Assembly (NCBI GenBank): GCA_000165345.1
Contig: CM000436.1
Span: 320,001 to 384,000, forward strand
Direction: 5' to 3'
DNA: 64,000 nucleotides
Shown here: piece after piece, positions 4,341-60,802 of the stretch
Numbering within the stretch: the first letter of the stretch is position 1
How the letters are laid out: each line of letters opens with the position of its first letter
The notes under the pieces: model-generated
Databases searched by the model: none
Told to the model about the DNA's origin: nothing
What the model saw: the letters and a program-made list of their open reading frames with translations, nothing else
Program-made: the position numbers and the translations under genes

Positions 4341-4352
4341 TTTTGGCGGGAA
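4341..4352. promoter_or_regulatory. E2F-like site TTTTGGCGGGAA upstream of the ADP/ATP carrier gene.
   Basis: Exact match to the canonical E2F core TTTGGCGGGAA, about 280 bp upstream of the ATG at 4059. Confidence 0.5.
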
Positions 4353-4424
4353 TTCAACCGTTTTTTTTTTTAAATTATTAATTGTCAATTATTTTCAATG
4401 AATTTATAAATTAAATATAAATAT

Positions 4425-6802
4425 TTAATTAGTGCAATATATTTCTTGTGCTGGAATAAGTTCATAATTAGCTCTATATTTTAAATATGCATTTTGACGA
4501 TGACTATTCCATGTTGTTGGAGCTTCTTGTATATTATCGGAAATTATTGTTTGATTATTAGAATTATTTATTCCTGTATTATTTGAATTAATAATATTAG
4601 AAAATGCAATTCTTTGTGCAATTAATGGTAAAATTTCATTGAGAGTTTCAATGAGTGGTATAAAATAGTCTAAAGTTAGTAAATATGTTCCATTACTTAA
4701 TCTTTTAGAATCAAAATTATCAAAATCAAATGATTCATAAGCCATTTGCATTGTTCTCCAGCCTGGAATGGTGTACTTACCATCAAACCATCCAAATGGA
4801 CCCATTTTGTTTTGTTCAGTAATATACCATCTTTGATCATATTTATATGTAACATTTGGTGCAATACAATGATTCATAACTTTAGTAATATTTGAAACTC
4901 CTTTATCATAATTTTTATCTAAATATGTGCTTTTTGGTATTAATAACCTTTTATTCATTAATTTTTGTGCGTGTAAATACTGTTGCTGGTTTTGCATGTT
5001 TTTCATTGATACAGATTTTGTAGTCTTGACTGTTTTCACTGGTGATTTTGTTGTTACTATTGTCACTCTTTTTGTAGTGGTAGTAGTTATTATTATAGGT
5101 TTTTTGGTTGTTGTTACTGTAGGTTTTCTAGTTGTAGTAGTAACTATTGGTTTTCTAGTTGTGGTAGTAGCTGTAGGTTTCTTAGTTGTGGTAGTTGCAA
5201 CTATGGGTTTCTTAGTTGTGGTAGTTGCAACTGTGGGTTTCTTAGTTGTGGTAGTAGCTGTAGGTTTTCTAGTTGTGGTAGTAGCTGTAGGCTTCTTAGT
5301 TGTGTTTGTCGTTCCAATGGGTTTCTTGGTAGTAGTTGTGTTAGTTGTCATTGTGGTTTTCTTAGTTGTGGTTGTAGTTCCAATGGGTTTCTTGGTAGTA
5401 GCTGTATAAGTTGCCACTGTGGGTTTCTTAGTTGTGGTTGTCGTTCCAATAGGTTTCTTGGTAGTAGTTGTATTAGTTGCCACTGTGGGTTTCTTAGTTG
5501 TGGTTGTCGTTCCAATAGGTTTCTTGGTAGTAGTTGTATTACTTGTCACTGTGGGCTTCTTAGTTGTGGTTGCCGTTCCTATGGGTTTCTTGGTAGTAGT
5601 TGTGTTAGTTCCCACTGGCTTTCTTGTTGTTGTTGTTGTTGTTGTAACCGTAGGTTTCTTAGTAGTTGTAAAAGTTGTAGTATTTAATGGTTTTGTTTCT
5701 TTATTTATTTTATCAATAGAACTTTCTTTTTCATTCAATGTTTCATCTCTATCTTTTTTAGTTAAAGATTCCAAAAAACTATTTAACCCATCCATAATTG
5801 TTGAATCACCAGAATTTGTATCTTTATTTGATTCTTCCTGTTGCATTTCTTCCTGCTCAAGTTCTAATTCGCTACTCTCTGAATCTTCAGTATTTGTTTC
5901 CTCATTACTGGTATCTGAATTGGTAACATCTGCAGAAGAAGAAGAAGAAGAAGAAGAAGTAGAAGTAGAAGTAGAAGTAGTAGTAGTAGTCATCTTCGTC
6001 GTTGTCGTCGTTGTTGATTGATTTTTTGAAGATATTGGCCTTTTTGTATTTGTAACACTTATTTGATTTGAAATATGAACCTTTTTTTCATTGTTACTCG
6101 ACATTTTGTCAATATTGTTACTTTTCGAGCTTTCAAATTGATTGTCTATTGTATTGCTACTTACAACTAAAGGCTCTTTATCTCCAATATATCTAACGAT
6201 TGTATCGTTAAAGTTAATTGGTTGGTAGTAAAGATGATCGTTAATTATTGGATTTTTAGCATTAAACCATTTAATTCCCATATTTGTATTAAAAAAAACA
6301 ATTCCTGCAATTGGGTAACTCATTATCAATGGTATTACATATTTTTGAGTAATACTATTACTATGAGTAACTACAACAATCTTTCTTGTTTCAAATTTTA
6401 AACAATTATTTACAAGCCAAAATAAAAATGATGAACTTGAAATTGTTTCAGACTTATTTCCAATTTTCGAATTAGTTAATTTTCCAGATTTTCCATAACC
6501 TGGTGGTGATACTGCTGCTACAGTAAAACCATTCTTATAAGCTTCATCTAATACTTTTGATTTTAACCAAGTATCCGCTATTAATTTTCCAATAAACAAA
6601 ACTAAACCTTTTTCTTCACTCTGATCTTGCTTCATTAATACTATTTCAATATCTAATTCTGATGAACAAGATAAAATTTGAGTTTTTGTAGTTATTAATG
6701 ATTTTGTATTTTTTGTTATACTATTAGATGTTTGTACTTTATCATTATTTTCATAAATATTACTTTCAATAAATATATTATTTGTATCATATGATGAAAA
6801 TA
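4425..6802 (-). CDS. Secreted or membrane mucin-like glycoprotein, main exon. It has an alpha/beta-hydrolase-like N-terminal domain, about 17 tandem copies of an 11-aa Thr-rich repeat (TTTTKKPxxTx), and a Cys/Trp-containing C-terminal domain.
   Basis: This is a 796-aa ORF. The N-terminal part resembles an alpha/beta-hydrolase core: LVLFIGK...GFTVAAVSPPGYGKSG and VVVTHSNS at the nucleophile-elbow position. The centre is a Thr/Lys/Pro O-glycosylation-type repeat encoded by a 33-nt tandem DNA repeat. A probable upstream exon is joined through a 70-nt GTAAGT...TTTTAG intron (see the 6873-7272 feature). Confidence 0.6.
5090..5670. repeat. 33-nt tandem repeat, about 17 imperfect copies, encoding the Thr-rich mucin repeats.
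   Basis: The plus-strand unit is GGTTTCTTAGTTGTGGTAGTAGCTGTAGGTTTT-like and repeats head-to-tail. It explains the spurious antisense poly-Val ORFs at 4927-5409 and 5419-6021. Confidence 0.9.
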
Positions 6803-6872
6803 CTAAAATAATCATTAGTTAAATTAAAAAAAAAAAAATTTTCAATTAATTTTAATATTAAATTAAACTTAC

Positions 6873-7272
6873 CTAAAGATTGATAATAAAAATAACTAAA
6901 AATTGCTGGTACAAATATAAAAATTAATGTCAATATACCATTCAATTGTCTTAACTTTTTTCCTCTATGCGATTTTGGTTTTATACATGTTTTACCAATT
7001 ATCCAAGAAATGCCCCATGATATGATTGGAAAACCAAAAAATCCCATAAAAAATAATACTACTTGTATTCTATCTCGCTTATATTTTGTTCTCAGTAATG
7101 ATTTAGATGTTTTTCTTTGAATTATTTCCAGTATTGTTGTATTACTGTCCGTTAAATGATAATAATCATTTTTATCTCCAATATCAAAGTTCTCAAGTTT
7201 TTTATCTTCCTTATTATGCTCTATATTTAATTTTAAATTTTCAATATTATTTTTTCTATTTTCAGTGACCAT
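6873..7272 (-). CDS. Probable exon 1 of the mucin-like gene. It encodes an N-terminal segment with two hydrophobic helices (signal anchor).
   Basis: This is a 161-aa ORF on the same strand, starting with ATG at 7272. Its tail overlaps the ATG of the downstream ORF in another frame. A consensus donor CTTTAG|GTAAGT lies at 6873/6872 and a poly-T tract plus TTTTAG acceptor ends at 6803. Splicing joins ...YYQSL to VFSSYDTNN... in frame (phase 1). E2F-like and GCATGC motifs lie 180-260 bp upstream, at 7452-7526. Confidence 0.5.
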
Positions 7273-7451
7273 TTATTATTATTATTATTATTATTTTCCT
7301 TCAAGTTTTTTTAATTATTAACTTAATTTTTCTTCTTCAATTAAAAAAAAAAACAAGAATAAAAGAAAATCTTTTTTAGTTACTTAAAATATTAATGTTA
7401 TTGTATTTGTTGTCCACATAAAAAATGCATTCGTAATTTTACTTGCAATTT

Positions 7452-7526
7452 TGCATGCATGTAAAAAATGACGTAATTAGTTATTTAATAAAAGAAATTT
7501 TTGAGTGTGCCGGACCCTCCCGCCAA
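7452..7526. promoter_or_regulatory. Promoter motif cluster upstream of mucin exon 1: TGCATGCATG, TGACGTAATTAG and TCCCGCCAA (E2F-like, reverse).
   Basis: The motifs are read directly at 7452-7461, 7468-7480 and 7518-7526, 180-255 bp upstream of the ATG at 7272. Confidence 0.5.
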
Positions 7527-7656
7527 TTCCACTACCAAGTAATAAATCAAATAATAAGAAATTATAACAAATAATTAAAAAAAAAAAGAAAAATGAAAAG
7601 AAAGAAAAGATAGAATGACCCAAGAAATATATATTTAAAAAATAAAATCAAAATTT

Positions 7657-9849: not shown

Positions 9850-10020
9850 TTTATTCTAAGCTCAAACCATCATCCAAATTTAAGAATCACTATTTACATT
9901 ACATATTATTTAATTAATTGCAAATTAATAACTTAATTTAACCAATTTTACTAAAATTTCAAATACTACCAATTTTTACCAATATTTCTTAAATTTCTAG
10001 TACTTATATATTTTACATAC

Positions 10021-10108
10021 ATACCGGCATTCTGACAGTGTGGGGAAATGCTAAAACACCGGTACTAACATTTGCAGAAATTTGGCGCCAAACACACACG
10101 TAATTATT
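10021..10108. promoter_or_regulatory. Bidirectional promoter core between TLK (minus) and POLE (plus): ACCGGCA / ACACCGGTAC, GTGTGGGGAAATG, the palindromic E2F site TTTGGCGCCAAA, and CACGTAATTA.
   Basis: The motifs lie at 10021-10030, 10056-10065, 10038-10050, 10081-10092 and 10095-10108. The segment sits between divergent ATGs at 9849 and 10306. Confidence 0.6.
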
Positions 10109-10305
10109 AGTAATAAAGAATTAAAAAATATATAGAAAACAGATTTACTTTTAATGAACTATAAGCAAATAAAACTAAGGCATTTATAGATATTAGGCCA
10201 AGTTCAGTAATGCCTTATGGCATTCTTAGGTCGAAATTAACTGAAAAGTTGGTAGATATTTGAAAGTTTGGAAATAACTAAGTTAGGAATTATAACACCA
10301 GTATA

Positions 10306-18492: not shown

Positions 18493-18650
18493 ATTATGAA
18501 TTTCATAGATAACTAGTTAAAAAAAAAGAAATAGAACGGAATTATTTGTTATATATAACTTACTATAATCTAAATCTATCCTTAAACTACCTATTCTGAC
18601 TTTGTTTTCAATTCGAAGATAAAAACAAATATATAAAAAAACAATTTAAT

Positions 18651-18714
18651 GCATGTGGGTTTGGCGGGCCATTGCGTGTATGAACCTGCATGTAGTGGCG
18701 GTAACATCTTTGCC
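18651..18714. promoter_or_regulatory. GCATG plus E2F-like TTTGGCGGGCC and GTGGCGG motifs in the convergent POLE / SEC24 3'-3' spacer.
   Basis: Read directly. Unusually, the motifs are downstream of both flanking genes. Confidence 0.35.
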
Positions 18715-22284: not shown

Positions 22285-22596
22285 TATTTATTTAACTTTC
22301 TGGGTATTAAGTGTTAATAACCCATACAGTAGAGGATTATCTTTGCTCCTAATAGTATTTAATTATTCTCCCCAAATAAAATAAAGAAAGAAATGTAGAG
22401 AAAATATTCTCCTTAATTAATTTAACCATACAGTTTATTAACTAGGTTGTTGCTATTATTGTTAAATTTTTTTTATTAATTAATTTTAATATTCTTTTTT
22501 GATTAATTTTCTATTTTCCCCTCTTTCTAATATGCATTTACTATTATTTCAATTATTATTATTCCCACATTAAAGTAATAAATAAATTGCCCAATA

Positions 22597-22607
22597 GGCG
22601 GGAATTC
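22597..22607. promoter_or_regulatory. E2F-like site AGGCGGGAATT upstream of SEC24.
   Basis: Shares the extended GGCGGGAATTC core with the 4341 site. It lies about 315 bp upstream of the ATG at 22284. Confidence 0.45.
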
Positions 22608-22980
22608 TTATTTAAATTATTTAGTGGGGAAAATTAATTTAAAAAAAAATGAAAAAAATGCTTTCGTTTATTCATTCTTAAATATTAAAAAAAAAATTAT
22701 AATATATATAAGTTTCTATAATGAAATTGATGGATAATTGTTCTTTGATTTTGTGATTAATAAAATCTGATAATAAATAGAAAGTATTATTGAACTTAAA
22801 TATTAAAATTTTATATTATTTTCTTTCAATGTTTTGCTGTTATAAATAGATTTGTTTCTAGTAAAATATATTTATATAAAGGAAAATTATTTACTATTAA
22901 AGAAAGATCTACCTGAATTTTTAAAATAATTTCTAATTAAAAAAAAAAATTTTTATTCACAATATTTATTGGTAGCAAAT

Positions 22981-23015
22981 ATGTGGGGAAATGTTTCTAG
23001 TGTCCTATACCGGTG
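22981..23015. promoter_or_regulatory. ATGTGGGGAAATG and ATACCGGTG motifs upstream of the 23210 gene.
   Basis: The same two motifs co-occur in the TLK/POLE promoter. Confidence 0.45.
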
Positions 23016-23209
23016 TTTGTTGGCATTGCATACGTGTATTTTTTTTTTCAATGTGGAAGGGGAACTTAGGTGTAAAGGCAATGCAAAAAAAAAATAAAAA
23101 TAATATTATAGAGTAAGCAGAGAATAGTTATAAATTTTAAGTATTTTTTTTTTTTCTAATAAATAATTAATAAGGTAATTAACAAAATAAAATTAGTAAT
23201 TAGATTAAA

Positions 23210-25363
23210 ATGCTAGATGGGAAAATCAAGAAGCCTGCTCATCAAAAATTACATGAAACAGTTGGAAAACATAACAGTTACATGAAAAATGTTGTATATG
23301 GTGACGAAAATATAACTGAATTAAATAAAATGGAATATCCAAGAAACACACTTTTGAGAAATAATGGATTACCAGAAAAACTTGAAAAGCATTTAAACAA
23401 TGAAAAAGAAAGAGAATTAGAATCATTATATGAAGAAAATCGACAATTATTAATGGAAATTTCAAAACTACGTAAAACAAATCAATTGTTAGTCAAAGAT
23501 GTAAATAAGAAAAATGAAATTATTGATAGTCTTGATTCAAGTCTTGTTGAAGTTGAAGAAAAACTGGAAAATGCAAAAAAGAAGAATTGGAATATGTATA
23601 ATGAAATTTTGAATAGAGAAAGAAAGAATCAACAACAAAATAATACCAGAGAACATAATACAGATTCAAATAATTCTGATGATGAAACTTATGAGCTTAA
23701 GGCCTCTAAAATTGGAACTTTTAATACAGTAAATATAATAAAATCTAATAATAAAAAAGATTTAACTAGCAATAGACCAAAGTCTACAAGTATCTCTACT
23801 TCAACAGAAAATACCAAATGGCTACAAGACATGATTTTAGAATCTTTAAGTGAAAAACATGTGGAAAAGAAAGCATATGATAATTTAAAATATGAAGTTG
23901 AGAAGCTTCAGAAAGAAATTTATTCAATGCAAACTGACTTATTGAAAAGTAATATACATGATGAAGTCATTCAAGAACCAATTGTTGATCATTCTAATGG
24001 AAAGTTATCAGTCTTCCATTCCACTAGCTCTTCAACCAATAATTCTTCAAGCATTATTGGAACATCTGTCAGCGGCTTTAATACCATCAATAATACTTTC
24101 CAATCTACTTCTCTCGCTCAAGAACTAAAGGAGGTCAACAATACTACAACTAATAGCTCCTTTGACTCTTCACAGAAATCTGAAGAAATTCAACAAGAAT
24201 CTGAAAAGGAAAATGAACAAGAAAATGTTGAATCTATTCCTCCAAGAAGTGTTCACATATTAATGGGTAAGACTTTCTCTAGAGACAATAACATTGACAA
24301 AAAAATCAACAAATACAAAAATGGTCCTAGATATAATATTCAGAAATCTGATAATGACAATTTTATTCATCCAACTTCTAATTATTACAGATCTGATATT
24401 CAAACATTCCAAACTCAAATTAATCAACAACCAAGTATAGCTACTAACGGAAATAACTATTATTACTACTCATACTCTAATTTGAATAATAAACATCAAA
24501 ATTACAACAACCTTGATCTAAAGAACTATTCTCATATCTATAATACTAATTACACTAATCCGTTTTTAAGTGTATCTACGAATGATAATTATAATAATAT
24601 GAATAGGCCTTTACAAGCATTCCAAAACAATAACTATTCTATTTATAACTCAATTAGAAGACCCATAAACCTTGCTGAATATAGAGCTAATTATAAAAAC
24701 CAACCGCATATGGACAACTTAGTAAATCACCATCCCCTAATGACTAACTCCATGTTAGATTCAGGCTTAAACCCTCAAAACTTAAAACAAGGATTTATAC
24801 AACATCAATACTCTAAAATTAATTTTCCAGAATCAAATTTAAACTCAATTCCAAGTTTAAATCCATTCTATACACAAACTATTAACTTAAATAATTATTC
24901 AAATTTACCATTTCCACCATTTCAAGTCAAAATTACACAAATATTCAGGAGAAATAGAAACAATTCTGTTCCTCCTCCAAGACCTAAAAATGAATTAAAT
25001 TCTGAAAAAGTTGTTAATGAAGAAAATCATCCAGTATCTAACAAAATTGATCTACCCGATTCTAATAATGATTCAGATAAAGATCTCCCACAGGGATATA
25101 TTCGTTTCAAAACTTCTATTTCTTCTCCATTGAGCCAGGATGATTTCTTTTCCCCAATCTCAGGAAATGTTAATAATATCTGTCCTTGCGATAAAGCCAT
25201 TGATTCATGCGCAGCCATATCAAAAAAGCTAATTCAAAATAACTATGAGAAGAAAAACAAGATGAGATCATCGTCAACATCTCTTCCACTCCCGATTCCT
25301 TTAATCGCAAAAAATAACCAATTTCAGGGAACATCTGGTCTACTCAAGTTTAGTAAATACTAG
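23210..25363 (+). CDS. Hypothetical protein with an N-terminal coiled coil and an Asn/Ser-rich low-complexity centre.
   Basis: This is a 717-aa ORF with an ATG start. Heptad-like charged stretches cover residues ~50-130. No recognisable catalytic motif. Promoter motifs lie 150-230 bp upstream. Confidence 0.6.
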   Translation: MLDGKIKKPAHQKLHETVGKHNSYMKNVVYGDENITELNKMEYPRNTLLRNNGLPEKLEKHLNNEKERELESLYEENRQLLMEISKLRKTNQLLVKDVNKKNEIIDSLDSSLVEVEEKLENAKKKNWNMYNEILNRERKNQQQNNTREHNTDSNNSDDETYELKASKIGTFNTVNIIKSNNKKDLTSNRPKSTSISTSTENTKWLQDMILESLSEKHVEKKAYDNLKYEVEKLQKEIYSMQTDLLKSNIHDEVIQEPIVDHSNGKLSVFHSTSSSTNNSSSIIGTSVSGFNTINNTFQSTSLAQELKEVNNTTTNSSFDSSQKSEEIQQESEKENEQENVESIPPRSVHILMGKTFSRDNNIDKKINKYKNGPRYNIQKSDNDNFIHPTSNYYRSDIQTFQTQINQQPSIATNGNNYYYYSYSNLNNKHQNYNNLDLKNYSHIYNTNYTNPFLSVSTNDNYNNMNRPLQAFQNNNYSIYNSIRRPINLAEYRANYKNQPHMDNLVNHHPLMTNSMLDSGLNPQNLKQGFIQHQYSKINFPESNLNSIPSLNPFYTQTINLNNYSNLPFPPFQVKITQIFRRNRNNSVPPPRPKNELNSEKVVNEENHPVSNKIDLPDSNNDSDKDLPQGYIRFKTSISSPLSQDDFFSPISGNVNNICPCDKAIDSCAAISKKLIQNNYEKKNKMRSSSTSLPLPIPLIAKNNQFQGTSGLLKFSKY

Positions 25364-25622
25364 ACATCTACTCTCATTGTATCCTAGCGTGACTCAACAT
25401 ACGACTCCCCTTCCCATATCCATCTTATAACTATCTATTTACTGCTAGTCAAATCTACAATCTAAAAGCAACATACAGTATAAAAACCTTAATTAATACA
25501 CAATTATTATTCGTTGTTTTTTAATATAAAATTCATACTCCTAAAAATTCTCCTGTAGAGCTCAACATGAACCCTTCTGTCCATTATACTACCTACAAAT
25601 TATTAACCGCCACATTTTCGAA

Positions 25623-25668
25623 AGCGCCAAATCGCATGCATTTTCATGTGGACAATTCAATACCGGTA
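25623..25668. promoter_or_regulatory. GCGCCAAA half-site, GCATGCAT and TACCGGTA in the convergent spacer between the 23210 gene and clathrin.
   Basis: Read directly. The cluster sits 3' of both neighbours. Confidence 0.35.
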
Positions 25669-25685
25669 TTTATTTAGCTGGTTTT

Positions 25686-31709: not shown

Positions 31710-32193
31710 CTTCCTCTACAATGAAAATCTATTATTTCTGCCTTCTCTTTTTATTTCTTTAATTAATAATTAAATAAGAATTTGTATTGTTTAGCCAAGT
31801 ATTAGTAATTATTCTTTTACATATACCCAGTTTAGATTAATAGCAAAAAATGTATATATATTGTGATATAAAGGGAAAATTAAGAAATAAGTTTCAGAGA
31901 ATTTTTGTTTAAAATATCTTAAAGCTCGTACTGTTCAGGGTCTCGATTACATAAATATTGCATATATATTTATATATATACTACATATACATATATATAC
32001 ATAAATATTTACAACAGGTCTAAGTAAACTTCACAGGCTTCAAACACTTTAAAACTTGCAAATTTTCCTGCTGTTCTTTTTTTTTTTGGAAACCTAAAAA
32101 TTACCTTTCCCCCTTAATTTAATTATTTCTTTTCTCCTTACCCTATTACCGTTATTGCTCCTTTATATAAGATTTTTTTTTGAGGGGTAAAAC

Positions 32194-32281
32194 TTTGGCG
32201 CCATACGTGGCGCTTCTTGGCGCCTAAAGTTGAAATTATTATTTTGTGAGAGCATGTAAAGGAGATATAATGTGGGGAAAT
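32194..32281. promoter_or_regulatory. Bidirectional clathrin / centrin promoter: three E2F-like half-sites (TTTGGCGCCA, GTGGCGCT, CTTGGCGCCTAAA) and TGTGGGGAAAT.
   Basis: Positions are 32194-32203, 32208-32215, 32217-32229 and 32270-32281. Confidence 0.55.
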
Positions 32282-32524
32282 AGGTTGTAATTAAAATTGG
32301 AATACAAGGAAAGGAAGAATTAAATAAATTGAGACTAAATAGGCGGAAGATAGATAATAATATATATTAAATTTGGTGAATTTAGTGGAAAATTTACGGC
32401 CTATTTGAGTTTTAAAGTCTGTTAAAAAACGACGGATTATAGCATATATTGAAAGAAAGGGAATTAATTTAAATAAAATAGAGAGAGATAGTTTTCAATA
32501 TCGTTTTAAGAGTAATTTTGAACA

Positions 32525-33092: not shown

Positions 33093-34562
33093 TTATTTTT
33101 TTGAATTACCAGATTCTTGGTCATTTAAATATTTGTTGAGCATCTTAGGAATTTCTTCTTGTATTGAAATACTTGTATCCCATAGAAATGAAAATAGGTG
33201 TATTATTATTGAACATATAGAAATCCCAAAAAGGCTATATATAAGAACTTGATTAGGTATTAGTTTGTAATTAAGCTTTATATTTGATGCTAAGAGGAAT
33301 ATATAATAAAGATCGGATTTAAAAAGCCAAGAATTTGATAAATTTGTAATATATATAATATTAGATATTGGAATTAAGACTATACCAATAATAAAAATCA
33401 TAGAATTCATTGGAGTTTGTGATTTAACTAAAACATGTATTGGTAAACAATAGCATATTTTTTTAGCCAATAGATTCCAAGTATAACATATACATGATCC
33501 AATATATATTGGTAAAATCATTGAGAATATTATAAAAATCATATTAATTAATTGATTACCACTATAATTTGGAGGATTCTTGACAACAATATGAATGATT
33601 AATGTTGCATATATAGATATAGTTAGTAATAATGTAAAGAACATTTGTACTAATTTAATAATAATAAAGGTGATATTTTGTCCTTTAGTCCTGAATCTCT
33701 CCTCCAAATTCTCAAAATATGAGCTTAATGCAAATACCTCACTTTTATATTTATATATTTTTTGTTTAAGAGCTCTTGTTTCCTGCCAAGACTTTAAATA
33801 TTTGCTTGTGTAGAATTCTGATTCAAGTCCTTTGGAGCTTTGATCAAACTTTCTTTTCAGATTCTCTCCTTTATTTGATAGTGCTTTAGAGATTACATAG
33901 ATTTCTTTTTTCTTTTCTTGATATAAATGAATATCAATTAGTTTTGGTCTTCTAATGATTGAAATTAAGTAGTTAATTGGAATCAAAACGCTAGCAACTC
34001 CAATAAATAATACATTAAAAATATACCCAATAAATAATAATAATCCAGCTGTTGCTATGGAGAATGTTCCATTAAAAATTAAAGGATCACTTGCACAATT
34101 AGCTTCATTGATATAACCAAGTAATGTTAATCTTATGCATGTCTCTTTTGAAATGCTACCTAAGTGAATTTCTTTGAAAATTGCATAATTACCACCAATA
34201 AAGATCCAACAAAATAATGTAGATAAGAATGAAGCTAGATATGGAGTGTAAGATCTATTTAGTCCAATTTTTGTATCAAACTGGGTTTCATAATAAAATA
34301 TTGAAAAAGGAATAACCAAAGAAGTGAATAAAATATTCAAATACATCACTACCATAAACAAAGCTCTCATATTAACAGTTCTGAATTCTTGAGACCCAAT
34401 AATTGGATATTCATTAATAATATTCACTGGAACTAACATAAAGTTTATCCATATTAACTGTAATCCTAGAATTACAACTATTCTTGTTACTAAAGCTTGT
34501 GTAAAAAATCCTAAAAAAGTTTGGTGAGTCAAAGTGGGAAATAGCTGAAAAACCTTTAGCAA
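33093..34562 (-). CDS. LMBR1-like multi-pass membrane protein; the true 5' end is probably a spliced micro-exon.
   Basis: About 9 predicted TM helices with a central charged coiled-coil loop (YQEKKKEIYVISK...). The motif IPFSIFYYETQF resembles the conserved LMBR1 PFAYFFxESEG segment. The ORF track start is TTG with no in-frame ATG until residue 42. A candidate ATG micro-exon lies at 34573-34590. Confidence 0.55.
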   Translation of the reverse strand: MLKVFQLFPTLTHQTFLGFFTQALVTRIVVILGLQLIWINFMLVPVNIINEYPIIGSQEFRTVNMRALFMVVMYLNILFTSLVIPFSIFYYETQFDTKIGLNRSYTPYLASFLSTLFCWIFIGGNYAIFKEIHLGSISKETCIRLTLLGYINEANCASDPLIFNGTFSIATAGLLLFIGYIFNVLFIGVASVLIPINYLISIIRRPKLIDIHLYQEKKKEIYVISKALSNKGENLKRKFDQSSKGLESEFYTSKYLKSWQETRALKQKIYKYKSEVFALSSYFENLEERFRTKGQNITFIIIKLVQMFFTLLLTISIYATLIIHIVVKNPPNYSGNQLINMIFIIFSMILPIYIGSCICYTWNLLAKKICYCLPIHVLVKSQTPMNSMIFIIGIVLIPISNIIYITNLSNSWLFKSDLYYIFLLASNIKLNYKLIPNQVLIYSLFGISICSIIIHLFSFLWDTSISIQEEIPKMLNKYLNDQESGNSKK

Positions 34563-34800
34563 GTTTACTTACCTTTTGAATCTTCAGCATCCTCGAAAAT
34601 ATAAATTAACCTTAGATTAATAAATAAAGCGATGGAATTGTAGAATATTATAAAACAAATTAAAATGAAATCCATAAATAATAATTCATAGCCTGTTTCA
34701 AATATTCTATGTTAACTTAAATGTTTTTTCCTTTGTTATTTATTAATAAATGTGAACTTATTTTTTTTTTTTTTTGCACTTCATTTAATTCATTCGTTTA

Positions 34801-34917
34801 AATTACGTCATTTTAAATTTGGCGCCTAAATAAATTCATGAACACTGTACCGGTATTCATGCACAATTTTTTTTTTTTCAGTTAATATATTTATCCACAT
34901 AAATCACACGTAATTAA
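34801..34917. promoter_or_regulatory. Bidirectional LMBR1-like / SMC5 promoter: AATTACGTCA, TTTGGCGCC, GTACCGGTAT, CATGCAC and CACACGTAATTAA.
   Basis: Positions are 34801-34810, 34818-34826, 34848-34857, 34858-34864 and 34904-34917. Confidence 0.55.
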
Positions 34918-35096
34918 AAATAATTGCATTAATCATTTTGCTAAAGAAGGTAATTGAGAAACTTTTTGGAGTTATTTTTCCTCAATTCCATCTTTCCTTT
35001 ATGCAAATTCTAAGAAATATATTATAGTAACTGAATGAATGAGTTGATTGACAAATTTTGAGTTAATGATAATACTGATTAAAATTCATAAATTTA

Positions 35097-39379: not shown

Positions 39380-39392
39380 TTCAAGTGTATTT

Positions 39393-40787: not shown

Positions 40788-40986
40788 TATTTATTCTTAA
40801 TATTACTTTTAATTAAATTATTAAGTGAAATTTTGTCCCCAAAACAATCCAACTCAACTAGACCTCAAACACCATATAAATTACCGTTCACTATTCCATT
40901 CATCCTAATAATGGATAGCTTTTTTTTTTTTAATAAAAAATTAAAATTTATTCTAATAAATTAATTTTTTTTCCCCCGAAACCATA

Positions 40987-41293
40987 TTCCCGCTCAAAGT
41001 CACCTGGTACATGTGAAAAAGGATGTGTGCAATGGTAGAGACTGACATTTGTGACAATGGAACTCAGTAATTTAAAAAGAAAAAGAAAAGAAAATTCTTT
41101 TTAACTCAGATATTTAAACATATTTCCGTTCATTAATAATAATAATAATAAAATATAAATATATATGTTAAAAATAAATATTTATTGAAATTATTTAATT
41201 AAAAATTAAAATAATTGGATCCACATAAATTATTTTATTATAATTACGTGTATTAATAAAAAACACCGGTATATGCAAGTAAAATTTGCATGT
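40987..41293. promoter_or_regulatory. Smr / calpain divergent promoter region: TTCCCGC (E2F-like, reverse), TAATTACGTG, ACACCGGTAT and TTTGCATGT.
   Basis: Positions are 40987-40993, 41241-41250, 41263-41272 and 41285-41293. Confidence 0.45.
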
Positions 41294-41623
41294 AAAAATA
41301 GCTTACGTGGCATGATTTTTATTTTTATTTTTTTATTTTAAATTAATAATTTAAGTATAAAGAATAAATGGTAAATTAATTTTTTTAATTCAAATGAATA
41401 ATGTCAATTGGTAAAGATAAATATCTAATCGTGAATTTTTGGTACTTTTATTTCTAATATAATATAATTAAAGAAAATTGTTAGATGGAATTAATAAATT
41501 TGGATGAGTGAAAATATTTTCTGTCAAGTTAAAATAGTAAAAAGTACAAGTAAAAAGAAAAATTATGTTGATAAAAGTTAAATAATAACATTTCAAATAT
41601 AATAAATTAAAAATTTTGGAAAT

Positions 41624-45439: not shown

Positions 45440-45572
45440 TCTTTATATATAATAAAATGTTATATTATTATTTGTATATTTAACATTTAAGAATATATTA
45501 AATACTATTTCCAACATTTGAATTTTTCTGTGTGCAAACAAATTCACTGTATTAATATTATACCCATACCTC

Positions 45573-45612
45573 ATTCCTCTTTCCTCTTTCCTCTTTCCTC
45601 TTTCCTCTTCTC
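45573..45612. repeat. (CCTCTTT)n microsatellite (a GAGA-like element on the minus strand) in the promoter region of the 44558-45439 gene.
   Basis: About five tandem copies of TCCTCTT read directly in the sequence, 130-170 bp upstream of the ATG at 45439. Confidence 0.85.
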
Positions 45613-45789
45613 TATTTATAAATTATCAAAGAAATATCAGCATTATTCTTTCCTCTCATACCTCTATAATATAAGCAATATATATATTCAATTCTCTTTT
45701 CTTTGAAATAGAATAATTCAAGTCTAAAATTGACCATTCAAGTTTTTTTATACAATTCGGTCACCATTTATCCTTCCAGGTTAATACAA

Positions 45790-54210
<8,421 letters not shown>

Positions 54211-54305
54211 CTTCAACTAATTTGCAAACTTCTTCCTCCTTTTTCCTTTTCCTTATCCCATATAATCCTCTTACCTAAATTTTCACTGCTTGACTTTGCC
54301 AAATG

Positions 54306-54315
54306 TTGGCGCCAT
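54306..54315. promoter_or_regulatory. E2F-like TTGGCGCCAT upstream of the Med14-like gene.
   Basis: Lies about 95 bp upstream of the ATG at 54210. Confidence 0.45.
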
Positions 54316-54696
54316 TTCCCCACCAAGAAATTCTAAAAAGAAATATAATTGGGGTAAAAATCATCAGTTTTTGATGAAATTTATTTGAAACTAAGCAAAT
54401 TGAGATGGAATATAATTATTACTATTAGATTTATCTTATTTTATGAGTGAAATTCAAGAGAAGCTTTTTCAATAGTATTTCCCCTAATTTCCTAATTGAC
54501 TTTTTCAAGCTTACACAATATAATCAATACTGACATGGACAAATCTGAATATAAAGAAAATTAAAATTAATTGAAATGCAAATTAAGTTAAAATTAAATT
54601 AAACTATTAAAATATTCAAAGGTGAAGGCACTCAGCCAATTCTTTGATTTTTTCTATTCTTAAGGAGTTTGCTCACATGAGCAAAAGTTGAATTAC

Positions 54697-55779
54697 TTAC
54701 TCCGATAATTTTGATCGGATAACCTTTATTAACCACTTCTCGATATCTACAATACAGTCAATTTCGAATCTCTTTTGATCCTGCTGCATTTGCATGCAAA
54801 ATGTATTCCACTCTGATTTTGATTCTTGAGAAATCTCATTTGAACTCATTAGTCTGTTTCTGGTATTAATTATTCTCGAAATTTCATCTTGTGTAATATC
54901 AAAAACATTATATGTAGCTATTAGCTCGTTCTCTATCAACTTCGAAACAGGAGGAACTTTAATTGGCAAAAGTTTTGGGATACTAAAACTTGAATCATAC
55001 CAAGTGCCTGATTTACCTCCCATTATATACGTTGCTGCTATTGAAAGTCCAAAACAGTCGTAATCGCATAGAATCCAGAACTTTGTATCTTCTGGAAGAT
55101 CTTGACTTAGTCTGTATAGTAAAGTCCTAGTAGGTAGATCCGAAAATCCTCTAGCTGTAATTAATATACAAGAATTATCAAACTCTTTATGAAATCCAAA
55201 TTCTAAAAGTCTTTGGAAAATAGTATCCTTTTCAACAACCAAAACAAACTTGATCTTTGAATAGTAGCTAAACTTTAAACCATTCATACCCTTGAATAGA
55301 TAAGGACTTATCGAATGCCCCATACTTTCAAAAATGGACATACAATCCAATCTAACCTCTCTTCTTCTTTCACAAAATCCTATTTCGTATCCTTGAATTA
55401 TCAAAGGACCTCTTATCCTCCCTCTAGCTGTGGAAACCACGTTCAAAAGTTCTCGAGGAGTCTGTACTAGATGAGTTACTTGTGCAATATATTTGTCTGA
55501 AATACTTTGTTTTGTATATAAACTCGGATTATTATAATAAATATCTCTTAAAGTCGAATGGAAGCCTTCCTTGACATTTCTATGAAGAATATTCATAACC
55601 GAAACCAAACAAGTTGAATTGTAAATTTGACTCCTACTTCCTCCATTTATTAACTCCCTTATTATGCTACATACTGAACTTTCCAAACGACTTGTAATTC
55701 TTTTATCTTCACCTTCTAAAACAAGAAGCTTATCCTTACTTTTACCTCTCTCAATCAAATTCCTCTCTTCTTGCACCAT
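54697..55779 (-). CDS. SPO11: SPO11 / topoisomerase VI subunit A homologue (meiotic DNA double-strand-break transesterase).
   Basis: The catalytic tyrosine context STLRDIYYNNPSLY matches RDI(F/Y)Y. The Toprim region FVLVVEKDTIFQRL (acidic metal ligand), ILITARGFSDLPTRTLLYRL and ILCDYDCFGLSIA (DxD) is colinear with yeast Spo11 IVIVEKEAVF / LITGKGFPDFLTRLFL / FTDADPYGISIA. Confidence 0.8.
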   Translation of the reverse strand: MVQEERNLIERGKSKDKLLVLEGEDKRITSRLESSVCSIIRELINGGSRSQIYNSTCLVSVMNILHRNVKEGFHSTLRDIYYNNPSLYTKQSISDKYIAQVTHLVQTPRELLNVVSTARGRIRGPLIIQGYEIGFCERRREVRLDCMSIFESMGHSISPYLFKGMNGLKFSYYSKIKFVLVVEKDTIFQRLLEFGFHKEFDNSCILITARGFSDLPTRTLLYRLSQDLPEDTKFWILCDYDCFGLSIAATYIMGGKSGTWYDSSFSIPKLLPIKVPPVSKLIENELIATYNVFDITQDEISRIINTRNRLMSSNEISQESKSEWNTFCMQMQQDQKRFEIDCIVDIEKWLIKVIRSKLSE

Positions 55780-56040
55780 TACGCCATCACTTAATCACAC
55801 TTTCTTCTTCCATCCCACCTATTATTTTATCCCATTATATGACTTTTCCATAAAATCCCTTTAATTTCAAATATATTAATCCTATCAAATCGAAAAATAG
55901 CCGAAACCTTGGCTATACTTCGCTCCAGAAAAAAATTCAACAATTTAATTTCTCAGATTCTTCCTTCCCTAATATTGCCAAATACATTACAATTTTTTCA
56001 TGTCGCCTTCATTTTATATTTTTTCCCCTTTGGGCTCCTC

Positions 56041-56092
56041 TTGCATGCAAAACTCCTCATTAATAAAAATTGGTACACCAAACTTTGGCGCC
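56041..56092. promoter_or_regulatory. TTGCATGCAA and TTTGGCGCC in the divergent SPO11 / 56638-gene promoter.
   Basis: Positions are 56041-56050 and 56084-56092. Confidence 0.5.
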
Positions 56093-56637
56093 TAAATGTC
56101 ACTCGACGTTAATTACCGTCAACCTTGGCAATTTTATTGCCGGCAGCATTTAGAGGTAAAAAAATAATATAAAATTGGTACCTAGTAAAAATTTGAGAGT
56201 TTTAGGTGCTTTTCTAGCCAAATTTTTTGAATTTCGGTATACTTTTCTAGATATATAATTGGAGTTGCTGTTTGTAGGGTTACTGGATATTATTGGATAT
56301 CAATTATAAGAAAGGATTTGATAAAATTTGGTATTGAAAATCAATTTTTTGGTATTAAAAAGGTTTTTTGGATTTTTATTCAGCTTCTAAGTGCTTATTT
56401 AGCAGAATTTTTTAACAATATTCTCAAAGCAATAAATAAGTTAAGTTTCTACTTTTCTTTTGGTATTTATATATTTTTGAATGCCTTTAATTAAAATTAT
56501 TAAATCGCATTTTTTAGACCCATTGCCTCAGGATTCAAATATAAAAGAGTTTTCAAGAGATAGAATACGGAGATAGGATTAATATTCGAGATTGAATCAC
56601 AGTGATTACTATTTTTCTGTTTATTTTAAATAATCAT

Positions 56638-58515: not shown

Positions 58516-58780
58516 TGAATCATTCTTACCAAATTTCCTTGATCAAAAAGCCCAATTTAGTTTCAATAAATGAACTATTTCTGAACAAAATGTGTATAAT
58601 ACAAGTTAAGTGGATTAAAACTAACTTAAACGTTGAGGTTTAGGTTGTTTAAAAAATAAAAAAGTATCGTTTCGAAACAGTTTTCTTGAAAATTTGCGAG
58701 TGGTATTGTAGTGTGTTTTCTAAAAATTGTTATTTGATTTTTTTTCTTTTTTTTGCATTATTTTAAATTCACTGTTTACT

Positions 58781-58898
58781 TACACGTAATTAACTTGTCA
58801 GATTTTTTTTTTTTTGCTATTCAATTTTTATCTTGCATGCACTTAGACTGTAAAAATTTGCATGAATTTGGCGCCTATTTGGCTTTGCCACGTCATTG
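58781..58898. promoter_or_regulatory. Promoter of the SLC35 transporter gene: TACACGTAATTAAC, TGCATGCA, TTTGCATG, TTTGGCGCC and CACGTCATTG.
   Basis: Positions are 58781-58794, 58844-58851, 58857-58864, 58867-58875 and 58889-58898. Confidence 0.5.
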
Positions 58899-59111
58899 AA
58901 AGAATTATTTGCCAAAATTGACAAATGATGTGACAAAAGAAGTAATATCAAAAGAATCAGAAATTTAAGTGTTTATGTTTACTAATAATTTATTGATCTG
59001 CCGATGAAGAGATAATCGGATTAATTTTGAAAAAATTGCAATATTTTGACATAAAATATAAAAGAGATTTAAAGGAAGAAAAAGAAAAAAAAGCAATAAT
59101 ATGGATTAAAA

Positions 59112-60398
59112 ATGATAGAGCTTTCATTGGGAAAACCAAGTCCTGAAAGAGGAGGTGATAATTCATTGATTAGTTTTCAGAAATATTATGAATTTGAAAA
59201 AGATTTAACAATAAATAGCCACGAGAATAATAACACAGAAAATTATGATATAAGTAATAACCAATTTGTCAATGTTGGAAAATTCTTAATCATTGAAGAT
59301 GAAAATTTTCAAAACAAAAGAGAAATAGTTACAGAACCTGTTATAGAAGTTAGAGAATTAATTAATACAGAATTAAATATTAATCAGCCTTCAGATTCTT
59401 TTCAATTAATGAAGGTTGAAGAATCTATTACGAGCATTTCAATTTCCATTACCATCTATATGATTGTGAGTATTTCAATAGTATTCTTGAACTATAAAAT
59501 TTTTTCAGGAATCATTGAATTTCCAATATTTGTTTCTTGGTTTCAACAACTAGTTGGGTTGGCAATCTTTCAAATTCTAAAAATTTATAAAAATCACCTA
59601 AGATTTGAATTGACTGAATTTACTCACTTTGATCATTTTGAATGGGAAACAGGAAGACATATGATACCATTAGCATTGTGTTTTATTGGAATGGTTTCTT
59701 TGAGTAATATATGCTTAAAACATGTATTAGTTTCAACTTATCAAGTTGCAAGAAGTACAACGATTATTTTTAATCTAATTCTTTCATATAAAATATTAAA
59801 ACAGAAATCTTCAATTTTTACTGTAGCATCTTGTATTATTGTAATGATTGGGTTTACAATAAGTGCATTTGATTCAAATACATTAAATTTGAATGGAGTA
59901 ATTTATGGGGTATTTTCATCAATTATACAATCATTTTATAGTGTATTGATAAAAAAACAGCTAAATATTGTTAATAACAATCAAATTCAACTCTTATATT
60001 ATCAGTTAATTTTATCTTCAATAATGTTTATACCTATTCTGATTGTTACTGGTGAAATCAGATTTTTTTTTATATTATTTGACATTAATCAAGGAATATT
60101 CAAAATATGTTTATTATTAAATTTCTTAATAATTTCCGGTGTTTTGTCAATACTAATCAATTTCTCAACTTTTCAGCTTATTAAGAAAACAAACTCTATA
60201 ACTTTTAATATTATTGCTTTACTAAAGTCATGCATTCAAAGTATTGGCGGGATTTTATTTTTGAATGAAATAGTTACTTTTCAATCTATTTTTGGAACAG
60301 CTCTAACATTATTTGGAACGTTTATGTATAGTTTTAATTCAAATAATAGAAACTCAATAAATAGTATGGAATATCAAGATTTAGAAAATAGAAATTGA
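59112..60398 (+). CDS. Nucleotide-sugar / triose-phosphate transporter family (SLC35 / DMT) membrane protein.
   Basis: About 10 TM helices. The segment LSNICLKHVLVSTYQVARSTTIIFNLILSYKILKQKSS matches the TPT/SLC35 core (vSFyQV.K..tp.f..l.s.l.l..k.s). There is an unusual ~110-aa hydrophilic N-terminal extension. Confidence 0.55.
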   Translation: MIELSLGKPSPERGGDNSLISFQKYYEFEKDLTINSHENNNTENYDISNNQFVNVGKFLIIEDENFQNKREIVTEPVIEVRELINTELNINQPSDSFQLMKVEESITSISISITIYMIVSISIVFLNYKIFSGIIEFPIFVSWFQQLVGLAIFQILKIYKNHLRFELTEFTHFDHFEWETGRHMIPLALCFIGMVSLSNICLKHVLVSTYQVARSTTIIFNLILSYKILKQKSSIFTVASCIIVMIGFTISAFDSNTLNLNGVIYGVFSSIIQSFYSVLIKKQLNIVNNNQIQLLYYQLILSSIMFIPILIVTGEIRFFFILFDINQGIFKICLLLNFLIISGVLSILINFSTFQLIKKTNSITFNIIALLKSCIQSIGGILFLNEIVTFQSIFGTALTLFGTFMYSFNSNNRNSINSMEYQDLENRN

Positions 60399-60791
60399 GT
60401 TGAACTCAAAATAAGTGAATACTTTAAAATTTTTTTTGAAAAAATATTAATAATAATTTCTTTATACTAAATTGATTTGATTTATACAGTTAAGATTTAA
60501 TTTAACTGTTTTTTTATTAAAAGTGTATACTTGAGATTATGAAATGATATAGCCAAATATAGTTATTTTGTAAAAGATTTCAACTTGATCAATATATTTT
60601 ATTATTTTAAGAAAAAAAAAACGAAAACATATACATTAGTGAAATTTATTCTTAGAAAGTATAACTTCATTAAAGTATATGATAAAGGATTTGATTTTCA
60701 ATTTTTGGGTGAAAGCAATCTGATGATTATAATATATTTTTTGTCAAAAACTTTTTTCATTTAGTAGCCATTAAAATTATTTACACACGAA

Positions 60792-60802
60792 TTGGCGCCA
60801 AA
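60792..60802. promoter_or_regulatory. E2F-like TTGGCGCCAAA upstream of the 61120 gene.
   Basis: Lies about 320 bp upstream of the ATG at 61120. Confidence 0.45.

Follow-up and report, generated by a model that had tools for sequence, protein, structure and literature searches.

Conserved short sequence elements in putative promoter modules of a Cryptosporidium parvum chromosome 8 segment

On the sequence evidence, we take the short sequences that recur upstream of genes in a 64-kb window of C. parvum chromosome 8 (the whole stretch analysed, cgd8_1200 onward) to be real, evolutionarily conserved promoter elements. The sites exist, are enriched upstream of genes, cluster, and are held in orthologous intergenic regions (IGRs) while the spacer diverges. 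Enrichment, clustering and cross-species retention together support the promoter-element reading of a first-pass annotation, and we consider it likely that the sites are transcription-factor binding sites in compact promoter modules. Such modules would be 50-120 bp long and frequently bidirectional, with start codons some 100-500 bp downstream. Two separate modules, one nearer either gene, would be present in each of the two longest divergent IGRs.

The analysis covers this single stretch and its orthologues, which are evolutionary replicates and not independent loci. One window protein has identical coding on C. parvum IOWA-ATCC CP044415.1, and the Sec24 gene of the window is cgd8_1250. The Cryptosporidium assignment made in the first-pass annotation was thus correct. 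No Rfam families or tRNAs were found within the window.

Recurrence, upstream bias and clustering

Every 6-, 7- and 8-mer of the 13 upstream-containing IGRs (7.4 kb in total) was tested against dinucleotide-preserving shuffles at a 5% family-wise threshold. The screen returned every motif of the first-pass annotation beyond these thresholds, and all 26 listed coordinates carry the motif given for them. Observed counts exceeded those of the shuffles: 10 against 0.01 expected for TTGGCGCC, 5 against 0.06 for GTGGGGAA, 3 against <0.01 for CACCGGTA, 4 against 0.06 for ACACGTAA, 6 against 0.32 for ACGTAATT, and 3 against 0.02 for TGCATGCA. Within the window, the upstream bias over coding sequence was 10 vs. 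3 for TTGGCGCC (P=8e-8), 7 vs. 1 for SACGTAAK (P=2e-6), 5 vs. 0 for GTGGGGAA (P=2e-5), and 4 vs. 1 for YACCGGTR (P=8e-4). The bias of GCATGC was weak (three upstream, three convergent and four coding sites).

An E2F-like site lies in 12 of the 13 upstream IGRs, and thus its proposed presence in nearly every 5' region holds. GCATGC accompanies it in only three of those 12, so describing the pair as frequent was too strong. Co-occurrence of the motifs is real: sites lay a median of 25 bp from their nearest neighbour, vs. 82 bp under random placement (P=0.002). Clusters with three or more motif classes in a 120-bp span numbered seven (0.02 expected), and upstream IGRs held five of these. Combinatorial regulation, drawn from this co-occurrence, may follow.

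Recurrence by chance, or as a by-product of G+C-richer patches in A+T-rich spacers, has to be weighed since the motifs were chosen by eye after the sequence was seen and the G+C content of the IGRs is patchy (16 to 33%). However, the family-wise-thresholded screen, which is unbiased, finds the motifs anyway. Shuffling inside 20-bp blocks, which controls for local composition, never attained the observed counts, save for TGTGGGG in 0.05% of shuffles. The words also recur at matching places in the orthologous IGRs of other species, for which protein identity is 52-87%. We regard this explanation as extremely improbable overall, and it is refuted for E2F, G-box and ACCGGT.

Retention in other Cryptosporidium species

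The comparison took in the orthologous regions from seven further Cryptosporidium species. In alignments A1-A5, the motifs formed conserved islands within spacers that could not otherwise be aligned, at 45-59% column identity. Across 221 kb of orthologous loci, upstream and coding counts were 12 and 1 for YACCGGTR (a 118-fold density ratio), 16 and 8 for TTGGCGC, and 20 and 12 for TGTGGGG. Retention of motif 6-mers in orthologous IGRs was scored against a GC-matched background of 0.24. The G-box was retained in 16/16 comparisons, C. muris and C. serpentis included, E2F in 48/76, and ACCGGT in 12/17 (P=7e-5), C. felis and C. ryanae among them. Neither ACCGGT nor TTGGCGC was found in the orthologous upstream sequence of C. 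muris or C. serpentis (about 2 kb per species). The individual loci are given in Table 1.

Table 1. Motif sites and modules in the window, with their retention in orthologous IGRs
Positions	Elements	Context	Other species
4341..4354	TTTTGGCGGGAATT (E2F-like; matches Motif 4 TTTGGCGGGAAV)	284 bp upstream of mitochondrial-carrier ATG (3127-4059, minus)	
7450..7530	TGCATGCATG / ATGACGTAATTA / TCCCGCCAATT	Module upstream of cgd8_1220 (4425-7272, minus)	3/3 elements in C. ubiquitum; C. felis retains GCATGCAAAAT only
10038..10108	GTGTGGGGAAATG, ACACCGGTAC, TTTGGCGCCAAA, CACACGTAATTA	Four-motif module, divergent kinase / DNA polymerase epsilon promoter	E2F, ACCGGT and G-box in C. ubiquitum, C. canis, C. 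felis; ACCGGT and G-box in C. ryanae; ACGT-core in C. ubiquitum only
22595..22632	GGCGGGAATT (E2F-like), AGTGGGGAAA (G-box)	314 bp upstream of Sec24 ATG	TCCCGC + CCCCAC pair at similar positions in C. canis
22981..23042	ATGTGGGGAAATG, ATACCGGTGT, ACACGTAT (minus)	Second module of Sec24 IGR, ~200 bp upstream of 717-aa gene	Block ACACGTATGCAATGCCAAYAAACACCGGTATAGGACAC...TTCCCC(ACA) in C. canis; ACCGGT also in C. felis, absent from C. ryanae and C. muris
25620..25670	GCGCCAA, GCATGC, TACCGGTA	Promoter-like cluster in 3'-3' IGR	GCATGC alone retained; ACCGGT in none
32178..32284	TGAGGGGT, TTTGGCGCC, CCACGTAT (minus), TTGGCGCC, CATGTAA, ATGTGGGGAAAT	EF-hand / clathrin divergent promoter	G-box and E2F-like site at similar positions in 5/5 species compared; site sequence and orientation differ in C. 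felis, C. ryanae; G-box present in C. muris
34799..34920	AATTACGTCA, TTTGGCGCC, TTCATGAA, TACCGGTA, TTCATGCA, ATCCACAT, CACACGTAATTA	LMBR1-like / SMC divergent promoter	~75 bp block TGCAT-GAAYACCGGTAT-TTCATGAA-GGCGSCAA-ATGACGTAA conserved from C. parvum to C. ryanae; IGR mean column identity 49%
40985..41000	TTCCCGCTC (degenerate E2F-like)	200 bp upstream of 464-aa gene	Chipmunk genotype I: canonical GGCGGGAA, offset about equal
41239..41314	TAATTACGTGT, ACACCGGTAT, TGCATG, CTTACGTGG	E2F-less module upstream of calpain gene	Entire block in chipmunk genotype I, C. ubiquitum; C. felis retains CCACGTAAG only
54304..54328	TTGGCGCC adjoining TTTCCCCAC (E2F + G-box)	96 bp upstream of MED14-like ATG	
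56040..56098	TGCATGCAA, TTTGGCGCC	Spo11-like / 625-aa divergent IGR	
58779..58900	TACACGTAATTAAC, TGCATGCA, TGCATG, TTTGGCGCC, GCCACGTCA	Upstream of TPT-family transporter gene	
60790..60805	TTGGCGCCAAA (E2F)	328 bp upstream of 844-aa gene	

Conserved blocks could also be transcribed sequence, namely initiator or start-site elements, signals in the 5' UTR, or small exons missing from the annotation, and one IGR of the ORF map did conceal an intron and a 5' exon belonging to the LMBR1-like gene. Against this, the blocks are islands of 8-16 bp with indel-bearing spacers between them, lie in both orientations relative to the nearest gene, and are in several cases palindromic (TTTGGCGCCAAA, TACCGGTA). 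They stand in divergent regions serving two genes, at 100-500 bp from the ATGs, and gave no RNA family match. Transcribed sequence is thus quite unlikely as the source of the blocks.

The ACCGGT and ACGT-core elements

The sequence (A/C)YACCGGTAY is a candidate site of one further factor. One of the five C. parvum ACCGGT sites, listed earlier as a promoter site at 25661, does not fit that role: it lies in a convergent IGR and is wholly unconserved. This site, and the absence of the motif from the C. muris and C. serpentis sequence compared, would agree with neutral sequence yet to diverge among species that are too close. However, C. felis and C. ryanae keep ACCGGT (4/6 in these two alone, P=0.014), against GC-matched background 6-mer retention of 29% and 9%, respectively. 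The polymerase epsilon site of C. felis has shifted and now adjoins the G-box, suggestive of turnover under selection. With the upstream vs. coding density in other species also against it, neutral persistence is very unlikely.

All four ACCGGT-bearing upstream IGRs fall within the seven of 13 with an ACGT-core site, a marginal association (hypergeometric ~0.05). ACGT-core and ACCGGTA sites occur together in 4/4 conserved ACCGGT promoters, and the two may make an E2F-less module, e.g., upstream of the 717-aa and calpain genes.

The motif CACGTAATTA/TGACGTAAT is probably an ACGT-core hybrid element; its retention is limited to closer species: 12/17 across chipmunk genotype I, C. ubiquitum and C. 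canis (P=0.0016, background 0.24). In C. felis, C. ryanae and gastric species it was 3/19 vs. a background of 0.17, not beyond chance. All sites have [CG]ACGTAA[TG] in common, and this part persists across species; SACGTAAK may be one face of the element. A candidate half-site TGAC, ACAC or CCAC would be paired with GTAA, GTAT or GTCA, and among the 12 ACGT tetramers of upstream IGRs, ten obey this grammar. Such a grammar would be typical of a bZIP-like dimer, a candidate class of binder only; C. parvum has a single annotated bZIP outside the CCAAT-binding group.

It is doubtful, though less so than the explanations above, that CACACGTAATTA belongs, as a variant, to the AP2-bound CACACA/GCACAC (AP2_2) or G-box family and does not stand as a separate element. 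Oberstaller 2013 Table S3 places CACGTA in Motif 2 with ACACAT and GCACAC, CACAC starts two of seven sites, and CACACA/GTGTGT is bound by four AP2 domains. However, what the sites share and conserve is [CG]ACGTAA[TG], TGACGTAAT and CCACGTAAG lack CACAC, and ACGT is in no reported AP2 specificity.

Comparison with known elements

E2F-like sites and GCATGC had been called established elements, rightly so according to PMC3734150 (Table 1) and PMC12246861 (Table 3). The motif list of Oberstaller 2013 already has E2F, GCATGC and the G-box TGTGGGG. Published work assigns TTTGGCGCCAAA and GGCGGGAA to the E2F/DP motif, the predominant one in open chromatin at 5' ends, and gives TGCATGCA as a target of cgd2_3490-type AP2 domains. 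Twelve window sites fit the E2F/DP consensus of Oberstaller 2013 (Motifs 3 and 4: DTTGSCGCCH, TTTGGCGGGAAV). Each promoter has about one, in line with what is reported for ATAC-seq peaks; such peaks bear E2F motifs at 5' ends, and bidirectional promoters make up more than half of them. These sites are ordinary members of the motif; its canonical form is lacking in orthologous IGRs of gastric species.

Three further motifs had been offered as perhaps undescribed. In the sources as accessible, this stood for ACCGGT only: no entry for it (or YACCGGTR) was found in any motif catalogue, and ACCGGTA is undescribed there as a motif. TGTGGGGAAAT contains the published core of the apicomplexan G-box (DTGTGGGG / G.GGGG, Motif 2), bound in protein-binding microarrays by the AP2 domains of cgd8_810 and cgd2_2990 (PMC3734150 and PMC4117751). 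The window G-box differs by a steady 3' extension, GAAA(T), on the core, as in GTGGGGAA, which has no coding occurrence. Since Table S3 already has the MEME consensus GTGGGGAAA, this extension is not new.

The third motif appears in FIRE output as the hexamer CACGTA/TACGTG (co-expression clusters 39, 42, 45 and 83, under Motif 2 in Oberstaller 2013 Table S3), a core identical in 7/10 upstream ACGT-core sites of the window. There it is classed with the G-box-like Motif 2, and it is unnamed in Table 1, the accessible text passages and the 2025 review. Within these sources, the ACGT-core motif was detected before and never recognised as a separate motif. What we add is the ACGTAAT(TA) extension, two variants (TGAC and CCAC) and data on conservation.

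By analogy, the window's ACCGGT could be likened to a Grainyhead/CP2 site, with which it has the palindromic, CCGG-centred core in common. That site is AACCGGTT, and its flanks are unlike the window's YACCGGTAY. To our knowledge, no Grainyhead/CP2-type factor is known in Apicomplexa. The ACGT-core elements of bZIP factors comprise plant G-, C- and A-box hybrids and CRE/PAR-type sites. Unlike classic bZIP sites, none of the window sites is perfectly palindromic. They appear to share the ACGT centre and the half-sites TGAC, CCAC and GTAA with these elements, and GCCACGTCA (58885) and TGACGTAAT resemble textbook bZIP hybrid sites.

Motif enrichment and proposed promoter modules

We read the recurrent words of the upstream intergenic regions (upstream IGRs, with at least one gene 5′ end) as compact promoter modules of putative transcription-factor sites, and this is the best-supported interpretation. 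The promoter lexicon proposed in the first-pass annotation is supported, although most of its content restates published C. parvum motif biology. All evidence comes from one chromosomal stretch and its orthologues.

The window has a G+C content of 28.5% and densely packed long ORFs, and its ORF map gave 13 upstream IGRs (about 7.2-7.4 kb) and five convergent, 3′-3′ IGRs (1.3 kb). Based on Pfam and the annotation of orthologous loci, the gene order is HECT ligase, mitochondrial carrier, cgd8_1220, protein kinase, DNA polymerase epsilon, Sec24, 717-aa protein, clathrin heavy chain, EF-hand protein, LMBR1-like protein, SMC-type ATPase, 464-aa protein, calpain, 293-aa protein, MED14-like giant protein, Spo11-like protein, 625-aa protein, TPT-family transporter, and 844-aa protein. 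The first gene is cgd8_1200, and the Sec24 gene is cgd8_1250. Three C. parvum chromosome records carry an identical copy of the 717-aa protein, among them IOWA-ATCC CP044415.1 (~333-339 kb). The long ORF of the LMBR1-like gene is preceded by a 5′ exon and short intron, so the true IGR start is near 34668, not 34440; its orthologues are annotated at 502-526 aa vs. 448 aa for the ORF in the window. Two ORFs that overlap in different frames together represent a single gene, cgd8_1220 (973 aa in C. felis), so that an intron or frameshift is implied at about 6790-6815.

The words read by eye were present at 26 of 26 listed coordinates. Since eye-picked motifs were not to be relied on, we counted all 6-, 7-, and 8-mers across the 13 upstream IGRs and compared the counts with 300 dinucleotide-preserving shuffles, which also supplied the family-wise threshold. 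The highest ranks were chiefly the motifs of the first-pass annotation, plus A/T runs and one CT-rich repeat, with counts far above the shuffles: TTGGCGCC was observed 10 times vs. 0.01 expected (spread over seven regions), ACGTAATT six vs. 0.32, GTGGGGAA five vs. 0.06, ACACGTAA four vs. 0.06, TGCATGCA three vs. 0.02, and CACCGGTA and ACACCGGT three vs. ≤ 0.01. When the sequence was shuffled inside 20-bp blocks, keeping the local composition, the observed counts were never reached, save for TGTGGGG in 0.05% of the shuffles.

The expected upstream bias over coding sequence was strong at window scale for the E2F, ACGT-core (SACGTAAK), G-box, and ACCGGT (YACCGGTR) words: 10 vs. 3 for TTGGCGCC (P = 8e-8), 7 vs. 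1 for SACGTAAK, 5 vs. 0 for GTGGGGAA, and 4 vs. 1 for YACCGGTR. It was not strong for GCATGC (AP2_1, BGCATGCAH), with three upstream, three convergent, and four coding occurrences (P = 0.037); inside IGRs this word strongly exceeds the shuffle counts.

An E2F-like site was expected in nearly every 5′ intergenic region and is found in 12 of the 13 upstream IGRs, where its distance to the nearest ATG is 96-330 bp. The E2F/DP motif (DTTGSCGCCH or TTTGGCGGGAAV) is matched by 12 sites, one of them degenerate. GCATGC had been described as often accompanying E2F, but the pair occurs in just three of the 12 E2F-bearing IGRs. One ACCGGT site reported as a promoter element lies in a 3′-3′ IGR. The sole upstream IGR without any of the five motifs contains a (TTCCTCT)n run, which resembles the published GAGA-like motif.

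The proposed clustering of the motifs held: the nearest-neighbor median distance was 25 bp vs. 82 bp when sites were placed at random within the same IGRs (P = 0.002). Seven clusters contained at least three motif classes within 120 bp (0.02 in the shuffles), five of them in upstream IGRs.

E2F, GCATGC, and the G-box make up the bulk of the finding and are already published. Table 1 of Oberstaller 2013 (PMC3734150) contains DTTGSCGCCH, TTTGGCGGGAAV, DTGTGGGG, and BGCATGCAH; thus, three of the five motifs were known. Of the three that the first-pass annotation could not place, the G-box is published (DTGTGGGG), the ACGT-core has a precedent as CACGTA, and ACCGGT matches nothing in the catalogue. 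In the literature, E2F/DP is the commonest C. parvum upstream motif and the main motif of ATAC-seq 5′-end peaks, over half of them bidirectional promoters; the G-box is a target of the AP2 domains cgd8_810 and cgd2_2990 (PMC3734150, PMC4117751), and several AP2 domains bind TGCAT. Binders are therefore known for the E2F, G-box, and TGCATGCA sites, and binding at the window's own sites is predicted.

Coordinates of genes, motif sites, and clusters (window positions unless a locus is named)
Feature	Position	Elements
cgd8_1220	4425-7272	ORFs 4425-6815 and 6787-7272
717-aa protein	23210-25363	
LMBR1-like 5′ exon and intron	34440-34667	GTAAGT...TAG
G-box core sites	10038, 22981, 32270, 22624, 54318	G[T/C]GGGG or DTGTGGGG
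Degenerate E2F-like site	40987	
ACCGGT in convergent IGR	25661	
ACGT-core hybrid adjoining ACCGGT	next to the ACCGGT at 23008	ACACGTAT
ACGT-core hybrid between two E2F sites	32205	CCACGTAT
ACGT-core hybrid	58885	GCCACGTCA
LMBR1-like / SMC bidirectional promoter	34799-34920	
Kinase / polymerase epsilon bidirectional promoter	10038-10108	
Promoter modules resembled by the plus-strand internal cluster	22981-23042, 41239-41314	
Cluster inside ORF 61120-63654 (plus strand)	62524-62594	SACGTAAK (62534), YACCGGTR (62580), ACATGCA, TTTTACCGCC
Cluster inside MED14-like ORF 45790-54210 (minus strand)	51719-51842	GCCCCACAT, TACATGC, TGCATGCAA, TTTTACCGCC, ACGTG, TTTGGCGCC
Convergent IGRs	25620-25670, 18650-18690	E2F-like plus (T)GCATG
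GCATGC in convergent IGR	near 25634	
Upstream IGR without the five motifs	45440-45789	CATTCCTCTTTCCTCTTTCCTCTTTCCTCTTTCCTCTTCTC
Conserved blocks not listed in the first pass	34832-34842, 32181-32188, 34890-34903, 32155-32165, 31818-31826	
Polymerase epsilon / kinase IGR, C. muris / C. serpentis	L015:21197-21410 / L013:9785-10000	ATTACCGC, then GCATGCCCCACAG, then (C/T)CGGTATAC

Conservation across Cryptosporidium

Each orthologous locus in the comparison spans about 14-23 kb; the sources were chipmunk genotype I, C. ubiquitum, C. canis (two isolates), C. felis, C. ryanae, C. serpentis, and C. muris. Gene order is the same in all of them, and the flanking proteins are from 87% to about 50% identical to C. 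parvum. The orthologous IGRs are largely unalignable (mean column identity 45-59%), and the motifs are conserved islands within them.

In the LMBR1-like / SMC IGR, the block TGCAT-GAAYACCGGTAT...TTCATGAA...GGCGSCAA...ATGACGTAA is retained from C. parvum through C. ryanae. The EF-hand / clathrin IGR keeps TTTCCCCACAT, two to three GGCGCC sites, ACCCCTCA, and other blocks well in the four closer species; in C. felis and C. ryanae the G-box, an E2F-like site, and ACCCCTCA stand at similar positions in diverged form. C. ubiquitum retains the series ACGTGTG - TTTGGCGCCAAA - GTACCGGTG - TTTCCCCACA in the kinase / polymerase epsilon IGR, and C. canis retains it minus the ACGT site; ACCGGT has shifted to adjoin an inverted G-box in C. 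felis, and C. ryanae retains ACCGGT and the G-box. The modules of the 717-aa gene (ACACGTATGCAATGCCAAYAAACACCGGTATAGG...TTTCCCCACA) and the calpain gene (CCACGTAAG...TACATGCAAT...ATACCGGTG...ACACGTAAT) are each retained in two to three species.

To quantify retention, C. parvum motif 6-mers were sought in the orthologous IGR, where background 6-mers with at least three G/C were retained at 0.24. The G-box was retained in 16 of 16 comparisons, a level that indicates functional constraint, and E2F in 48 of 76. ACCGGT was retained in 12 of 17 (P = 7e-5), including four of six in C. felis and C. ryanae alone (P = 0.014). For the ACGT-core we used a GC-matched background because A+T-rich 6-mers are uninformative (background retention 0.37); its retention was 15/36 overall (P = 0.016) and 12/17 (P = 0.0016) when restricted to the three closer species, with no excess over chance in the distant ones (3/19).

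Across all other-species loci, the upstream IGRs (19.9 kb) contain 12 YACCGGTR sites and the coding sequence (195 kb) a single one, and among the occurrences listed, all non-coding ones fall in orthologues of C. parvum IGRs that have ACCGGT. The gastric species C. muris and C. serpentis lack both ACCGGT and the canonical TTGGCGC in the orthologous IGRs, and their polymerase epsilon promoter retains GCATGCCCCACA. At 95% identity in this IGR, the two species are too close to each other for footprinting. Their polymerase epsilon / kinase IGR carries an ordered series of words of its own (Table).

Further conserved blocks were missing from the first-pass list. AAATTCATGAA and TGAGGGGT are each found in five of five species, the latter fitting G.GGGG; ATCCACAT / ATGTGGATAAAT matches a motif described for COWP class II genes, A[T/A]G[T/A]GGA.A; cross-species conservation extends to TTGCTCCTTTA and TACATATAC as well. 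Structured RNA or tRNA as the source of conserved blocks was rejected.

The ACCGGT and ACGT-core elements

The non-coding ACCGGT sites share the consensus (A/C)(C/T)ACCGGTA(T/C), frequently extended by ATAGG, and occur in both orientations relative to the nearest gene. The flanks of coding occurrences mostly differ, e.g., gaACCGGTcg and gtACCGGTca. We found no match for ACCGG / CCGGT among the 25 motifs of the Oberstaller 2013 catalogue, in its Table S3 as far as Motif 25, or in the main texts of Oberstaller 2013 and 2014, Mullapudi 2007, and Cohn 2010, and YACCGGTR is absent from the tables of a 2025 review. Literature hits for ACCGGT or ACGTAA with Cryptosporidium were limited to primers and restriction sites; the many mentions of motifs in a 2026 preprint refer to a motif that motif discovery had yielded from coding-sequence RNA rather than from promoters. 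ACCGGTAY fits none of the reported AP2 specificities (TGCAT, CACACA/GTGTGT, G-box, GCGTGCA, A-rich). Four AP2 proteins are classed in the 2025 review as lacking DNA binding. As its binders, Myb (YAACGG), ETS (ACCGGAAGT), GATA, and AP2-G (GTAC) were rejected because their sites do not fit.

The motif first read as CGTAATT is better defined by the conserved core [CG]ACGTAA[TG]. TGAC, ACAC, or CCAC is joined to GTAA, GTAT, or GTCA at the ACGT center in 10 of the 12 ACGT tetramers of upstream IGRs, which resembles a bZIP element with recognized half-sites. From this half-site grammar we infer that the element would be bound by a bZIP-like dimer, and one bZIP is recorded in C. parvum outside the CCAAT-binding group. 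However, classic bZIP elements have dyad symmetry, and all 10 sites here are hybrids, with no CACGTG, GACGTC, or TACGTA; this is a point against a simple homodimer. The AP2_2 motif (GCACAC / CACACA) is an unlikely home for CACACGTAATTA, since a CACAC(A) core is present in just two of seven SACGTAAK sites; TGACGTAAT and CCACGTAAG are without it. By eye, Motif 10 (RMGACG) and Motif 22 (HTKWYGAC) of Oberstaller 2013 did not match TGACGTAAT.

In Table S3 of that study (PMC3734150), FIRE reported CACGTA/TACGTG in clusters 39, 42, 45, and 83 (Z = 6, robustness 6/10), and the word was placed in Motif 2, the G-box family; MEME reported GGCGCCACGTC in cluster 194. The four FIRE clusters filed under Motif 2 represent a genome-wide but unrecognized precedent for the ACGT-core.

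The two elements go together: an ACGT-core site lies within about 60 bp of ACCGGT at four of four conserved ACCGGT sites. In the two longest divergent IGRs the pair forms its own module, apart from E2F and nearer the other gene. We tentatively propose, at somewhat less than even chances, that (A/C)YACCGGTAY plus SACGTAAK is a previously unrecognized composite element in promoters of the intestinal Cryptosporidium clade. Its binders would fall outside the E2F/AP2 specificities, e.g., the lone non-CCAAT bZIP and an uncharacterized protein. It could drive E2F-less promoters and, within long ORFs, might label sites of internal or antisense initiation, for example at 62524-62594.

The added value of this analysis is a conserved, highly upstream-specific candidate element, ACCGGTAY, with no description in the literature searched; the delimitation of a putative ACGT-core hybrid element as distinct from the G-box family; and the apparent pairing of both, including E2F-less modules. 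Cryptosporidium gene regulation is poorly understood, and the published list of cis-elements is short: the 2025 review gives just AP2_1, AP2_2, G-box, E2F, GAGA, and CAAT. The two elements would extend this list by two, indicate regulators besides E2F and AP2, and aid promoter prediction, internal and antisense promoters included.

Clusters outside upstream regions and known antisense promoters

The plus-strand internal cluster holds the sole coding SACGTAAK and YACCGGTR of the window, 46 bp apart, and may be an internal or antisense promoter. Its layout, ACATGCAAAACACGTAAT...TTTTACCGCC...CACCGGTATAGG, resembles two promoter modules of the window (Table). The dense promoter-like cluster in the MED14-like ORF is the sole coding one with at least three motif classes. 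TTTTACCGCC, which may represent an E2F-like variant, is common to both internal clusters and to the polymerase epsilon / kinase IGR of C. muris and C. serpentis.

Two convergent IGRs both contain E2F-like plus (T)GCATG sites, and GCATGC in one of them is retained in chipmunk genotype I, C. ubiquitum, and C. felis. Antisense lncRNA promoters with E2F and AP2_1 motifs have been published (PMC7840661), and the sites in these 3′-3′ IGRs agree with them.
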